Shown here: in pieces, positions 34,701-46,700 of the stretch
Layout: every line of letters starts with the position of its first letter
Position numbering within the stretch: the stretch's first letter is position 1
NCBI RefSeq assembly: GCF_053078305.1
Contig: NZ_CP166879.1
Direction: 5' to 3' (one strand)
Length of the DNA: 64,000 nucleotides
Program-made: the position numbers

Positions 34701-37700
34701 TCGGTGCCGGACATGCCAATATCCAGCACATCGACGCCCGCATCCTGTAAACCTTTCGCCAGCGCCAGTTTTAAGGTTTCGCTGGTGAGGCGGACATCAC
34801 CGCCTAACACAATGGTTTTCGGTTTGAGAAATTCGCCATAGGCGCGACCAATGCGCCACGCAATATCTTCATTCAGTTCTTCGCCTAATTTCCCGCGAAT
34901 ATCATAGGCTTTAAAGCAGGTTAATTTTTTCATATAAAAACCTTACCAATAATAAAATTATTTATGCGCAAACAATTGCATTAGTTTTGAGATTTTTCTG
35001 ATAATGATAGCAATTTTCCAATTTACATTATGGTTTTTCATAACTTCTACAATTTCCTTTGTACTTGATATCGCGTTATCAATTCTGGTACTTTCCCCAC
35101 CCAATCTCATCTTTACAAATACTTGAGGAACATAAATAACTTTAATATCATCACGTTTCAAAATCCTGACCATCTGATCATAGTCTGCAGCAATCCTATA
35201 GGATAAATCAAAATATCCATCGTCTTTATATAATTCCCTCCTCATATAGAAAGATGGATGCGGTGGTGCCCAGCCTAATGATAGCTTAGAACGTTTAAAA
35301 GGACCACTACGCCAGTATCGTTTGATTATATCAATTTGGTTTTTTTCGAAAAAAACCAAATCACCGTATACAACATCCGCTTTTGTCTCATGGAAACGGC
35401 TTACAATAGTTTCAATAATATCAGGTCTTGCTAAAAGGTCATCAGAATGAACGAATCCAATAATATCTCCCGTAGATAAATTTATACCTTTATTTAAAGC
35501 ATCATAGATACCGTTATCGCTTTCTGATAGACATTTGGTTACTCTTGTTGATACTTCGTTAATTAGTTTTAACGTATTATCTGTAGAACCACCATCAATA
35601 ATTATATACTCTATATCTTTATAGGTTTGCAACTCTATTGACTCTAAAGTATCCCTTAAAGTCTTTTCACTATTATAAGTCACTGTAATAATACTGACTT
35701 TCATTTTAACATCCAATAATAATCATAATTAAATAACGTCAGTACAGCATTACGAATAATAATGTTGCATTAGTATCCAGCATCATTTTAGATTCTAACA
35801 ACATCATCTTCATCCAAGTAGACACCTGAACGTACCTCAATAATCTCCAAAGGGATCTTTCCTGGATTCTCAATAAAATGAGGTACACCTATTGGTATAT
35901 AAGTTGATTCATTTTCAGAAACAAGAAATATTTCATCTTCATAATGGACTTTTGCTGTTCCAGAAACAACAATCCAATGCTCAGTACGATGGTAATGAAT
36001 CTGTTTAGCAGTTTTATGTCCAGGATGAATAACGACATGTTTAACCTCAAATCGAGATCCTTCCGCTATAGAGTCATGACTGCCCCATGGCCTAAATATT
36101 TCACGATGCTGCAGATATTCCGTACGGTTATTAACTTTAAGTTTTTCTACAATATTTTTTACCTGTTGAACTTTATCTTTATGCGCAACGAGAATAGCAT
36201 CTTTAGTTTCAACAACTACTAAATCTTTAACTCCTACTACACCAATTAATCTATGTTGTGAGTAAAGATAACTGTCAGAAGAATCATGAATTAATACATC
36301 TCCTCTAATTGCATTTCCACTTTTATCTTTTCTGCTAATTTCCCATAATGCAGACCAAGAACCAACATCGCTCCAGTGGGCATTTAATGGAACTACCACA
36401 GCCTCTGTTGTTTTCTCCATAACAGCGTAATCAATGGATTCTTCAGGGCAACAACTAAATGAGTCATTATCTATACGGATAAAATCAAGATCTTGTGTAG
36501 AGGACTTCAATGCTTGTTGGCATATTTTTAGTATGTCTGGTCTAAATTTATTCAACTCATCAATAAACACAGAAGCCCTAAACATGAATATTCCACTATT
36601 CCAAAGATAATCTCCATCTTCAAGATATTTTTTGGCCACATCTAGCTCAGGCTTTTCAACAAAAGCAGAAACTTTAAAACCATATTCATTTAAATTTTCT
36701 CCGGTTTTTATGTAGCCATATCCAGTTTCGGGTTTGGTTGGCACAATACCAAAAGTTACCAGCTTACCTTCCTCTGCAAATTCTTTTGCAGCCAATATTG
36801 ACGATATAAAGCGCTTTTGGTCTTGTATTTCATGATCGGCTGCTAGTACAAGCAGTATTGGATCCTCACCTGATGAAATTGCTTTAAGAGCAGCAAGCGC
36901 AACTGCGGGGGCTGTATTACGACCTATCGGCTCTAGTAAAATGCCACTATTCGCTAAATTTACATTACGCATCTGTTCTGCAACGATAAAACGATGAACT
37001 TCATTACAAATAACCAGAGCAGGACGATGTTCAACCCCTTCAAGCCTTCTTAAGGTCTCTTGTAGCATAGTCAAACGACTAGTTAACGATAGGAATTGCT
37101 TCGGATATAGTGTTCGAGAAAGTGGCCACAATCTAGTTCCAGAACCACCGGCCATTACAACAGGAAGTAGCATATAAATAACCTTCACTTAAAATAATTT
37201 TTTGTGTACTGATGAACTGAGGAATTAGCTAACAATTCGGCTATATCGAACCAATTGTAAGTACTATGTTGTAGTGTTGGATAGTTAATTTGATGTGGCA
37301 TCAAACTAATCTCATATCCGTGTACGACATAATGAGTTGAAAAACAAGTCCCAGAAAAATTGTCGCTGTAGAAATGTTCATAAATCCCAAGAAATTTTGC
37401 TTCATTAATGCTAATTTGAACACCCAATTCTTCAAAAGTAACTCTTTTGAATGCGTTCTCGAAAGACTCATCTTTAAGAATCCGTCCCCCCGGCACAAAC
37501 CAATAATTTTGTGCTGGACGATTAAGGCGCTGACCAAGCAGCGCCTTACCATCTTCGTTTCTTATAATAAGGTCTATCGAGATTAGTGGAGTATGTTCAA
37601 CTATTGATTTAAATAACTCTGTTTCTAATCTCTTGTTCAATATTAACTCCTAAATGAGTCAAGATTATTTATAAACCATTTATATGTTAATTCTAGTCCT

Positions 37701-43700: not shown

Positions 43701-46700
43701 GAACTAGCTATAGCAAAAAATGGGATTACGCTTATTAGAATATATAAATATATACATCTATGAGATAATTCCGGATTGTATTTTTTAATGTAATTAACAT
43801 ATATATTAAAATAAAAAATATATGATAAAAATGTTGAAAAAAAAGGTAAAAATTCTTTTTTTATTCCTAAAGATTTAAATAAATAAATAACAGTATTTAT
43901 TGTAATATATCTATTGTCACTATTTTCAAAAACTTTGTTTAGTGATGTTTGACTAACATATAAATATGTTTCATAATGCCTAGTCAAATCCCAATTTTCA
44001 TAAGGTATTAACAAAAATGCTAGTACCCCTAGCATAAATGAACATACATAAACACTCCATCTGGCCCCATTAATCATTTCAATCATTGCTAATAATAAAG
44101 CAAGAGGCAAATAAATTATTGAAATAAATGAAGCACTAATTTTTATGTTTCTATTAATCATCTTTTTATAACTTTTCTCATAAATAGGTAAATATCTGCT
44201 AACGCCGCATATAATTTCCCGTTTCTTTTCTTTCGGATTTGTCTCGCTTCCTCCAATGCTAATTTTACATTTTTAGCGCTAAGGCCGGCATTTCTCATCG
44301 AAGAGATATTTTTATCAATATAATGAAAGATATAACCTTGTTTCTTCAATTTTAGCAAAAGATCATAATCAGAAGCAATTTTATAGCTAGTATTAAATAA
44401 ATTTTCTCTGTGGATATCTTTTTTAATAAATGTGGCCGGATGGCTTAAATTCATATCTATATGTAGTTTCCAGTCTTTAGGCCTCCGGACCTGAATAACA
44501 TCCAAGCTATCAGCCTCTACCAAAGACATATTTCCATAAATAACATCATATTTATTTTCTTTCATTACTTTTATTACTTGACATAATACATCTTTATTAT
44601 AAAAATCATCAGCGTTTATAAATCCTATATAATTCCCAGATGCTTTTAACACACCTTTATTCATTGCATCATATATACCATTATCATTTTCAGAAATGAT
44701 ATATGAAATTTCATTTTTGTAAGAATTAACAATATTTAGAGTATTATCCGTTGATGCACCATCAATTATAATATATTCAATGTCATCATTGCAGTTTTGT
44801 GATAAGACACTTTTTATAGTATCTTCGATATACATTTCGCCATTGTACACAACGGTAACTATTGTTAAAGTTGGTTTATTCATTGTTAGCCCTACAATAA
44901 ATTTAAATTATTTAATTTATTTGTTTTCTTAATCAAAAAGTAAAATCTCGCCATTATTATAAACTCAGTTGAAATAACTCCTATTGCTGTACCAACTCCT
45001 GAGTATTCATTAGTCAAATAAGTAATTATCAGTAGGCCTATTAATCCACTGGTAGTAATAATTTTTGTAAACTCTTTTTTCATACCAATAGGGATCATTA
45101 CTAAAATTGCAATATAATTACTTACCGTAACTATTGCTGGAGTAAAAGCTAAAACCTTGAGTATTTCTAAAGATTCATGATACGTTTTTCCATACATGAT
45201 TAAAATTATATCGTCTGCAAAAAAGTAAAGAAATATGGAAAGTACGAACATCAGTGAAAATTGCCATCGAAACACTTTCCTGGCTAATAATAGTCCATCG
45301 TCATGATTATCCTTCATTATATAAGTTACTCTAGGAAAAACAGCTTGGGTTATAGGACCAATAACGCCTTGTAGTGCAAGCCTAATTTTATCTGCAGCGA
45401 TAAAATATCCCACTGCAGTTGTTCCTGATAATGCACCTAATATTATTGTTGAACTAGTAGTATAAAGGCTTATTGCTGCAGAGGAAATGAAGTAATGCCA
45501 TCCATCATAAATTAACTCTTTCATTTTGGATAAGGATGGTGGTACCCATATTATTTTTTTAAGAGAAAATAAAAAATATGTAGATATTATACCTGCAATA
45601 ACTGTTATTGATGATTGTATTGTTATCGCTATACCAAGATCCTTTTCACTTTTAACCAATAAAAATGTTAAACATAGTGTAAGTAAGCGTGCGGAAAACA
45701 TACTTATCGCTATTCCTAACATTTTTTCCAGCCCTTGAAAAAACCATACTGGATATATTAAATTTCCTACGACAGATATGTATGCAAGAATGATAAATTT
45801 AATTTGGTAATCAATGATATTCAATTCCGAAATTAAATAAATAATTAACAAACCAAGAGATGCAGCAATTATTTTGATAAACGTTACATTCCAAAAAACT
45901 TTACTTATGGAATCAGTATTTTCCCTTGATATTGATATTATTTTGGGCGCTGAGTAGTTAAATCCGTAATCAATAAATAATATAAAATATTGGACCACAG
46001 CAAAACTATACCCATATATCCCGTATCCTGTAGGTTCAAGGATCCTGACAAGATAAGGCAGTGTGACCAATGGAAATATATAATTGCCACCTTGAACGCT
46101 TAATAAATAGATGATGTTTTTTAACATAACGAGCCTACGTACTTAACAAGTCTTATTTTGCACGATAGTTTACAATTTGTTAAGTAATATGGGATAAACA
46201 TTTAATTCACGCTACCGCCCCTGGCTCAACAGCTACCAGCGTACTGCATGCACGTCCTAATTGTAACTAGCATTAACCGTTATGGTTAGTTCGAAAAGCT
46301 TAACTCTGAACGTTTTACCAAATCGCTTCAGAGATGGAGAAAATCTCAGCCTCCCACAATAAATGCCTATTGAAAAGTTATTGTTACTCATATTTAGAAC
46401 GGTATAAAGAAAGAATGAGGCAATGAGTACAATTAGCCCCACCAATCTTCACTGCCGTTATAATTTTCTTATCAACCGTTACATCCGGTCAGATTTTCAA
46501 TATTCGCTTAACAGCTTCTCAATACCTTTACGGAACTTCGCCCCTTCTTTGAGGTTGCGTAGTCCATACTTCACGAACGCTTGCATATAGCCCATTTTTT
46601 TACCGCAGTCGTAGCTGTCACCAGTCATCAGCATTGCATCAACAGATTGTTTTTTCGCCAGCTCAGCGATGGCATCTGTCAGCTGAATACGTCCCCATGC

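Follow-up and report, generated by a model that had tools for sequence, protein, structure and literature searches.

The stretch of Escherichia coli DNA considered here, a window of 64,000 nucleotides (nt) from contig NZ_CP166879.1 (RefSeq assembly GCF_053078305.1), carries an O-antigen gene cluster on its minus strand at about 33.5–47.4 kb, from galF to gnd. As judged by its sequence, the cluster is that of E. coli serogroup O11 and is of the Wzx/Wzy-dependent type. Read from the galF side towards gnd, the genes are wzx, a glycosyltransferase (GT) of family GT2 (GT2a), wzy, a GT of family GT4 (GT4a), a galE/gne homologue, a second GT4 (GT4b), gmd, fcl, gmm, manC, a second GT2 (GT2b) and manB. 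The wzx/wzy region was compared with 65 complete RefSeq E. coli genomes, in which it is found with 99.8% identity over 4271 nt and is annotated as an 'O11 family' flippase and polymerase. The whole gene order of the cluster is also present in the RefSeq O11 genomes, and the assignment to serogroup O11 follows from these two observations. The per-gene GC content inside the cluster is 0.26–0.39 (manB, described below, aside) and about 0.5 or more outside it. The ops element and the JUMPstart sequence to which it belongs, seen here upstream of wzx, are usual in RfaH-dependent O-antigen operons.

The question addressed is which of the encoded enzymes transfers fucose (Fuc) from guanosine diphosphate (GDP)-fucose to the growing O unit. 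The features of the locus are collected in Table 1, in which the other sugars are abbreviated as Man (mannose), GalNAc (N-acetylgalactosamine), GlcNAc (N-acetylglucosamine) and HexNAc (N-acetylhexosamine), and the lipid carrier as PP-Und (diphosphate-linked undecaprenol).

Table 1. Features of the O11 O-antigen cluster and its borders, listed from the galF side to gnd (aa, amino acids; ORF, open reading frame; UDP, uridine diphosphate)
Feature	Position	Strand	Basis and remarks
gnu (Und-PP-GlcNAc 4-epimerase)	47636..48631	-	331-aa ORF; RefSeq homologue 'N-acetyl-alpha-D-glucosaminyl-diphospho-ditrans,octacis-undecaprenol 4-epimerase'; just upstream of galF; proposed supplier of GalNAc-PP-Und
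galF, upstream cluster boundary	46497..47393	-	298-aa ORF; GalF in the RefSeq annotation of a 99.8%-identical genome; GC 0.51
ops element (GGCGGTAG) of JUMPstart sequence	46212..46219	-	exact motif in the galF–wzx spacer, upstream of wzx
wzx, O11 O-unit flippase	44892..46127	-	PF01943; 99.8% identical to 'O11 family O-antigen flippase' genes in 65 genomes
GT2a (GT2, inverting, GT-A)	44158..44883	-	PF00535; wcaE top NCBIfam match; WrtF best PDB match; proposed second alpha-L-fucosyltransferase, Fuc onto alpha-HexNAc/GalNAc
wzy, O11 polymerase	42926..44161	-	PF14897 EpsG; 'O11 family O-antigen polymerase' in RefSeq homologues; would form the beta-GalNAc linkage between units
GT4a (GT4, retaining)	41857..42924	-	PF00534; adjoins gne; by elimination, proposed alpha-GalNAc (HexNAc) transferase onto Man
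gne/galE-family 4-epimerase	40820..41836	-	NCBIfam PRK10675 at 449 bits; PF01370; proposed supplier of UDP-GalNAc for the internal GalNAc
GT4b (GT4, retaining)	39744..40751	-	PF00534/PF13439; directly upstream of gmd; proposed alpha-mannosyltransferase onto the first Fuc, WbyK-like
gmd	38612..39733	-	ORF and RefSeq annotation; between GT4b and fcl
fcl (GDP-L-fucose synthase)	37643..38608	-	ORF and RefSeq annotation
gmm (GDP-mannose mannosyl hydrolase, Nudix)	37185..37640	-	NCBIfam PRK15434 at 194 bits; PF00293
manC (mannose-1-phosphate guanylyltransferase)	35788..37173	-	ORF; 1386 nt in RefSeq annotation
GT2b (GT2, inverting, GT-A)	34958..35704	-	PF00535; between manC and manB; proposed first alpha-1,3-L-fucosyltransferase onto GalNAc-PP-Und, WbyL/WbyQ-like
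manB (phosphomannomutase)	33563..34933	-	ORF; GC 0.546; 97% identical to colanic acid cpsG in the window
gnd, downstream cluster boundary	31993..33399	-	ORF and RefSeq annotation

The four glycosyltransferases of the cluster

A preliminary description of the locus had recognised two GT2 and two GT4 enzymes in the cluster, and the Pfam assignments agree with it. The small pair, GT2a and GT2b (about 245 aa each), matches PF00535 with an E-value of about 1e-28 in both cases, and the other pair, GT4a and GT4b (about 340 aa each), matches PF00534/PF13439 (PF00534 at E 3e-29 and 4e-26). The same description was right in stating that no GT11-like enzyme accompanies the GDP-sugar genes manB, manC, gmd, fcl and gmm. 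None of the four transferases matches PF01531 (GT11) in Pfam at E<=0.01, and the GT11 motif I, H-x-R-R-G-D-Y, is absent from all six frames of the window, in which the one loose match, HARYGDF, is unrelated and falls within the ORF span of the colanic acid gene wcaL. Outside the O-antigen and colanic acid clusters, no further glycosyltransferases are found in the RefSeq annotation of a near-identical genome. The description of GT2a and GT2b as WcaE-like paralogues also holds, but their identity had been put at about one half and is 35% over 213 residues (BLASTP E 4e-44). The lack of GT11 does not imply that the cluster has no recognisable fucosyltransferase, as both GT2 enzymes match WrtF, a characterised one, and a match of this kind is what the preliminary description had named as counting against it.

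WrtF of Rhizobium tropici CIAT 899 (PDB 9OMH-9OMN) is a GT2 enzyme of the GT-A fold, described in 2025 as an alpha-1,4-L-fucosyltransferase on the basis of its structure and biochemistry (PMC12595478). In the sequence search of the PDB it is the top match of both GT2b (E 3.8e-25) and GT2a (E 5e-22), while the next PDB family follows at 1e-16 and 1e-14, respectively. The AlphaFold2 (AF2) models lead to the same protein. For GT2a (mean predicted local distance difference test score, pLDDT, 92.6) as well as GT2b (pLDDT 89.6), the top 15 Foldseek matches in the PDB are all WrtF chains, with E about 1e-20 and template modelling (TM) scores of 0.73–0.80 for both models, ahead of every other GT2 structure. 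The models predict a GT-A core followed by a C-terminal helical region, as in WrtF, so that the choice between the GT-A and GT-B folds, which the preliminary description had left to structure prediction, comes out as GT-A for the two enzymes.

A similar picture is obtained from direct comparison with other fucosyltransferases of the family, among them WbdO of E. coli O157, for which alpha-1,4-fucosyltransferase activity was demonstrated biochemically (Melamed and Brockhausen 2023, as cited in PMC12595478). By BLASTP, GT2a and GT2b are 29–31% identical to WbdO, WcaE and WrtF over 74–98% of their length, e.g., 30% over 246 aa for GT2b and WbdO, and 31% for GT2a with either WcaE or WrtF; for WbdO with the two enzymes the range is 30–31%. 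The GT2 family of L-fucosyltransferases further includes Bf4306 and GtfD. Of the non-fucosyl GT2 enzymes, WbdN matches in the N-terminal nucleotide-binding part only and WcaA weakly. The NCBIfam model wcaE is the top match for GT2a and the top or near-top full-length match for both enzymes. Their scores of 64 and 100 bits lie far under the equivalog cut-off of 369, which makes them relatives of WcaE, sharing its size and fold class, and not WcaE itself. In the multiple alignment, three residues of WrtF, namely the guanine-binding Asp66, His142 and the catalytic base Asp167, are kept in both O11 enzymes, and Phe13 is replaced by Tyr in both. Gly89 of WrtF is replaced by Asn or His, although the 'DD' of the GADD motif is kept, and at the DxD region the O11 enzymes have NADD and HSDD, where WbdO has NAGD. 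WrtF differs from the O11 enzymes in more than its identity of only about 31%, since it belongs to an ABC-transporter-type O-polysaccharide pathway and fucosylates glucose, whereas the O11 cluster is of the Wzx/Wzy type and its acceptors are probably GalNAc.

The start codon of GT2b is most likely the ATG at 35704, from which a protein of 248 aa (MKVSIIT...) is read; the RefSeq gene and all homologues begin in this way. An alternative start at the TTG at 35716 is unlikely.

The repeat unit and the synteny of its genes

The structure of the O11 unit is available from a paper on its chemical synthesis, which describes a pentasaccharide whose linkages are alpha in four cases and beta in one (PMC4906483). 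The reducing residue is beta-D-GalNAc, the alpha-L-Fuc is placed at the only free position of this acceptor (O3), and alpha-D-Man is placed on that Fuc; the remaining disaccharide was built from a 2-azido (HexNAc) thioglycoside and a 2-O-benzyl thioglycoside donor, and no galactose (Gal) is among the residues named for the pentasaccharide (PMC4906483). We read the unit as alpha-L-Fuc -> alpha-HexNAc (probably GalNAc) -> alpha-D-Man -> alpha-L-Fuc-(1->3)-beta-D-GalNAc, in which the second Fuc and the internal GalNAc are inferred. The reference cited for the 2-O-benzyl donor, Lonn 1985, is presumably that of the classical tri-O-benzyl-L-fucosyl donor. With regard to the internal residue, O11 is missing from the units that a review of E. 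coli O antigens gives as having exactly one GlcNAc and one GalNAc. Such an omission, together with the presence of both gne and gnu, fits a unit with two GalNAc residues.

The composition of the unit also bears on the missing family. According to the same review, GT11 enzymes make Fuc-alpha1,2-Gal, as in O86, O127 and O128, and this linkage is not among the reported O11 residues, so that no GT11 enzyme is needed. The GT11 enzymes, e.g., WbsJ of O128, resemble the O11 GT2 enzymes in using GDP-fucose as the donor and in giving an inverted, alpha-linked product, but they have no relation to them in sequence, motif or fold. Further GT11 alpha-1,2-fucosyltransferases are WbgL of O126 and FutC of H. 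pylori.

The part of the cluster that surrounds GT2b is found in other bacteria. The order GT4 - gmd - fcl - (gmm) - manC - GT2 - manB, with GT2 enzymes 53–73% identical to GT2b, is present in Citrobacter freundii, Yersinia mollaretii, Aliivibrio fischeri and Pectobacterium carotovorum, and a GT2b-family gene lies between manC and manB, near gmd and fcl, in five genera. In a sixth genus, Marinomonas, an Fcl-sized epimerase gene, truncated by the start of the locus, is found at a distance of 7.5 kb from the GT2 gene. The best described of these loci is the 'main-chain module' of Yersinia, wbyK - gmd - fcl - manC - wbyL/wbyQ - manB, in which wbyL is predicted to form alpha-L-Fuc-(1->3)-GlcNAc, wbyQ, co-occurring with gnu, the same linkage onto GalNAc, and WbyK alpha-Man-(1->3)-L-Fuc (Kenyon et al. 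2017, PMC5399914). GT2b is 53% identical over 245 aa to a Y. mollaretii protein whose 90% cluster includes the protein of strain ATCC 43969, and in that strain the gene between manC and manB is wbyL (PMC5399914). GT4b is 53% identical, over the full length, to the GT4 encoded directly upstream of gmd in Y. mollaretii, i.e., in the wbyK position, and 52–53% identical to proteins of Y. pseudotuberculosis and Y. pestis; many of its homologues are labelled mannosyltransferase. The gene order is thus alike, and the predicted Yersinia product, alpha-Man-(1->3)-alpha-L-Fuc-(1->3)-HexNAc, matches the reducing-end trisaccharide of O11. The O11 cluster differs in having gmm besides, and two extra sugars, which would be added by GT4a and GT2a.

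Assembly of the unit and competing assignments

The linkages of the unit can be set against the stereochemistry of the enzymes. Enzymes of family GT2 invert the anomeric configuration of the donor, and those of GT4 retain it. The donor of fucose is GDP-beta-L-fucose, from which an alpha-L-fucoside is obtained by an inverting enzyme, while alpha-Man and alpha-HexNAc, coming from alpha-linked donors, require retaining enzymes. If beta-GalNAc is the initiating residue and its linkage is formed by Wzy, the four other linkages need two inverting and two retaining transferases, which matches the two GT2 and two GT4 enzymes of the cluster. As the unit would contain two alpha-L-Fuc residues and the cluster only two inverting enzymes, both GT2 enzymes are expected to be fucosyltransferases. 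An assembly of O11 in which GT2a and GT2b are the two fucosyltransferases, as members of the known GT2 class of WrtF, WbdO and WcaE, is therefore considered probable, with a probability of roughly 0.78.

In such an assembly, WecA and Gnu would first provide GalNAc-PP-Und. GT2b, an inverting GT-A enzyme of the WbyL/WbyQ type, would then transfer Fuc from GDP-beta-L-fucose to O3 of GalNAc, and the retaining, WbyK-like GT4b would add alpha-Man from GDP-mannose onto this Fuc. The next step would be the addition of alpha-HexNAc by the retaining GT4a, using UDP-GalNAc supplied by the adjacent Gne, and the terminal alpha-L-Fuc would be added by GT2a, the second inverting enzyme, of the WcaE/WrtF type. 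Wzx would flip the finished unit, and Wzy would form the beta-GalNAc linkage. The roles of GT4a and GT2a are assigned by elimination; in addition, GT4a adjoins gne, and in the PDB its sequence is closest to WbnH (E 3.6e-11), which we take to be the alpha-1,3-GalNAc transferase of O86.

Several points weigh against this assignment. The text of the synthesis paper (PMC4906483) is the source for the linkage positions and for what residues D (GalNAc or GlcNAc) and E (fucose) are, in the case of E by way of the donor reference cited there. Two positions of WrtF termed conserved among GT2 fucosyltransferases are changed in both O11 enzymes and in WbyL, Asn143 to Pro and Phe191 (F/Y in the group) to Met; in the alignment, WbdO and WcaE carry Gln at position 143. 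The functions of the Yersinia enzymes WbyL and WbyK are themselves only predicted, and the order of the two GT2 enzymes, i.e., which of them adds which fucose, is a provisional assignment from synteny and homology. Finally, the genomic context of GT2a is less telling than that of GT2b. Among 80 genome loci of remote GT2a homologues (32–44% identity), scanned with no matched control set and with no enrichment claimed, gmd and fcl lie within 10 kb in 14, and in 13 of the 48 long loci, so that context does not tie the wider GT2a family to fucose. An association of GT2a with GDP-fucose genes is seen in the O11 window and in C. freundii.

The context of GT2a also gives some room to a different division of labour, in which GT2b alone would add both fucoses and GT2a would make the beta-GalNAc linkage, with the alpha-HexNAc as the initiating residue and an alpha linkage formed by Wzy. 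This is unlikely. One enzyme could in principle act twice if both fucoses sit on GalNAc, and the initiating residue, as stated in the review of E. coli O antigens, is undecidable from the structure when a unit has more than one GalNAc. Such a scheme, though, calls for a single retaining step next to inverting steps of three kinds, which leaves one GT4 idle and is less parsimonious for a cluster with two enzymes of each kind. In both sequence and fold, GT2a is about as good a match to WrtF as GT2b is, and its best NCBIfam match is wcaE. The homology with Yersinia, moreover, places Fuc-alpha1,3-HexNAc-PP-Und as the first committed step.

The assignment of the fucoses to GT2b and GT2a departs from the preference expressed in the preliminary description. 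It had proposed a GT4 enzyme as the probable fucosyltransferase, in the manner of WcaI in colanic acid synthesis, or else a GT2; the second option is borne out by the likeness to WrtF, WbdO and WcaE, while the first, favoured one is very improbable. There is a precedent at least in annotation, as the GT4 enzyme WcaI is labelled 'colanic acid biosynthesis fucosyltransferase' in RefSeq (PGAP), and GT4b is encoded directly upstream of gmd. Against this stands the retaining mechanism, by which a GT4 enzyme would yield beta-L-fucosides from GDP-beta-L-fucose, whereas the fucoses of O11 are alpha-linked. At E<1e-3, GT4a and GT4b do not match WcaI or WbdP, none of the best PDB sequence matches of the two (MshA, WbnH, WbaZ and WaaB) is described as a fucosyltransferase, and mannosyl transfer is predicted for the Yersinia counterpart of GT4b. 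The two WrtF-like GT2 enzymes would, in addition, be left without an inverting linkage to form.

Least probable of all is that one or both fucoses come from a GT11 or another fucosyltransferase whose gene lies elsewhere in the genome: although the inspection covered 64 kb of the genome and side-branch transferases sometimes lie outside O-antigen clusters (E. coli O-antigen review), WecA and the four glycosyltransferases already cover the five sugars, the window holds no GT11 signature, O11 has no Fuc-alpha1,2-Gal linkage to form, and the transferases are kept together as a set both in Salmonella O16 and on a metagenomic contig.

Relatives of the cluster and the meaning for GT2 fucosyltransferases

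Outside E. coli, orthologues of the two GT2 enzymes occur in the Salmonella serovars Hvittingfoss, Gaminara, Orientalis, Hull and Barranquilla (63% identity for GT2b and 66–68% for GT2a), presumably all of serogroup O16 in the serotyping scheme. This distribution fits the published pairing of E. coli O11 with S. enterica O16, which is given in the title of Li et al. 2011 (FEMS Immunol Med Microbiol 61:258; PMID 21205000; GenBank HQ388393), where the O11 structure and gene cluster were published. The cluster described here is the same locus as the published E. coli O11 and S. enterica O16 clusters, with no substantial difference.

More distant relatives keep parts of this arrangement. In C. freundii (CP199763.1, at 8667-20728 of the extracted locus L007), the genes are wzx, a GT2a-like gene (46% identity), wzy, a GT4b-like gene (44%), gmd, fcl, gmm, manC, a GT2b-like gene (73%) and manB. 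This cluster differs from that of O11 by an extra acetyltransferase, a different middle GT4 and the lack of gne, and it probably directs a related O antigen containing fucose and mannose. A scaffold from a metagenome of the European Nucleotide Archive (ENA), SCHR19-1_SAMN09405940_METAG-scaffold_446 (10001-17552 of locus L005), holds an unrelated capsule or O-antigen locus with a homologue of each of the four O11 transferases, in the O11 order, together with wzy and wzx; the identities are 54% (GT2a), 42% (GT4a), 51% and 35%, and the GT4a homologue adjoins that of GT2a. The genes gmd, fcl and manC were not found within the 20 kb shown, and no GDP-sugar genes lie between the transferases. The upstream genes code for an HMGL-like/MptE-like protein, an HAD hydrolase and a CTP-transferase. 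With its 54% GT2a homologue and no gmd or fcl nearby, this scaffold might be taken as a counter-example to fucosyl transfer by GT2a, but it was dismissed as such because it carries all four transferase homologues in order, from which it follows that the set travels together.

The neighbouring colanic acid cluster gives two further observations. The O-antigen manB and the colanic acid cpsG, 22 kb away, are 97% identical (33601-34933 compared with 55934-57265), whereas the gmd-fcl pairs of the two clusters share only 69% identity; the GC content of manB is 0.546, in contrast to 0.26–0.39 in the rest of the O-antigen cluster. This suggests that manB may have been homogenised by recombination with cpsG. 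The second observation concerns two 1-bp deletions relative to a RefSeq O11 genome, both in colanic acid genes. One C is missing at each of positions 56995 and 61928, by which the reading frames of cpsG (55896-57266, minus strand; ORF of 355 aa) and gmd (61567-62687, minus strand; 302 aa) are shifted. These frameshifts could stem from sequencing errors or mark genuine pseudogenes; in the latter case, colanic acid synthesis would rely on the O-antigen copies of cpsG/manB and gmd.

For discovery as such, the locus carries little weight, as the O11 cluster, the structure of the O11 polysaccharide and the GT2 fucosyltransferase class are all already in the literature. The modest residue consists of the O11/WbyL-type GT2 enzymes, which differ from WrtF at two positions considered important. 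They appear to be relatives that form a sub-group of their own and not close copies of WrtF, and no enzyme assay of this type was found in the literature. It may be suggested, tentatively and with somewhat more doubt than confidence, that GT2a, GT2b and WbyL-like proteins form a distinct, biochemically uncharacterised sub-clade of GT2 fucosyltransferases making Fuc-alpha1,3-GalNAc. If so, their binding of GDP-fucose or metal could differ from that of WrtF, which is metal-independent, and of WbdO, which is reported to depend on metal, and they could serve as enzymes for building fucosylated GalNAc glycans.

The lack of GT11 in the O11 cluster would, by analogy with O157, be expected and not a puzzle. 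The O antigen of O157 likewise contains fucose, and its cluster has gmd, fcl, manC and manB, no GT11, and a 248-aa WcaE-like GT2 fucosyltransferase, WbdO, which differs in its acceptor, Glc-beta1,3-GalNAc-PP-lipid (Glc, glucose). In a fucose polysaccharide locus without GT11, a GT2 enzyme like WcaE, WbdO or WrtF should be looked for, rather than a gap inferred. The O11 cluster itself offers two paralogous, uncharacterised candidate GT2 fucosyltransferases with defined acceptors, which would be suited to the existing assays with GalNAc-PP-lipid analogues.

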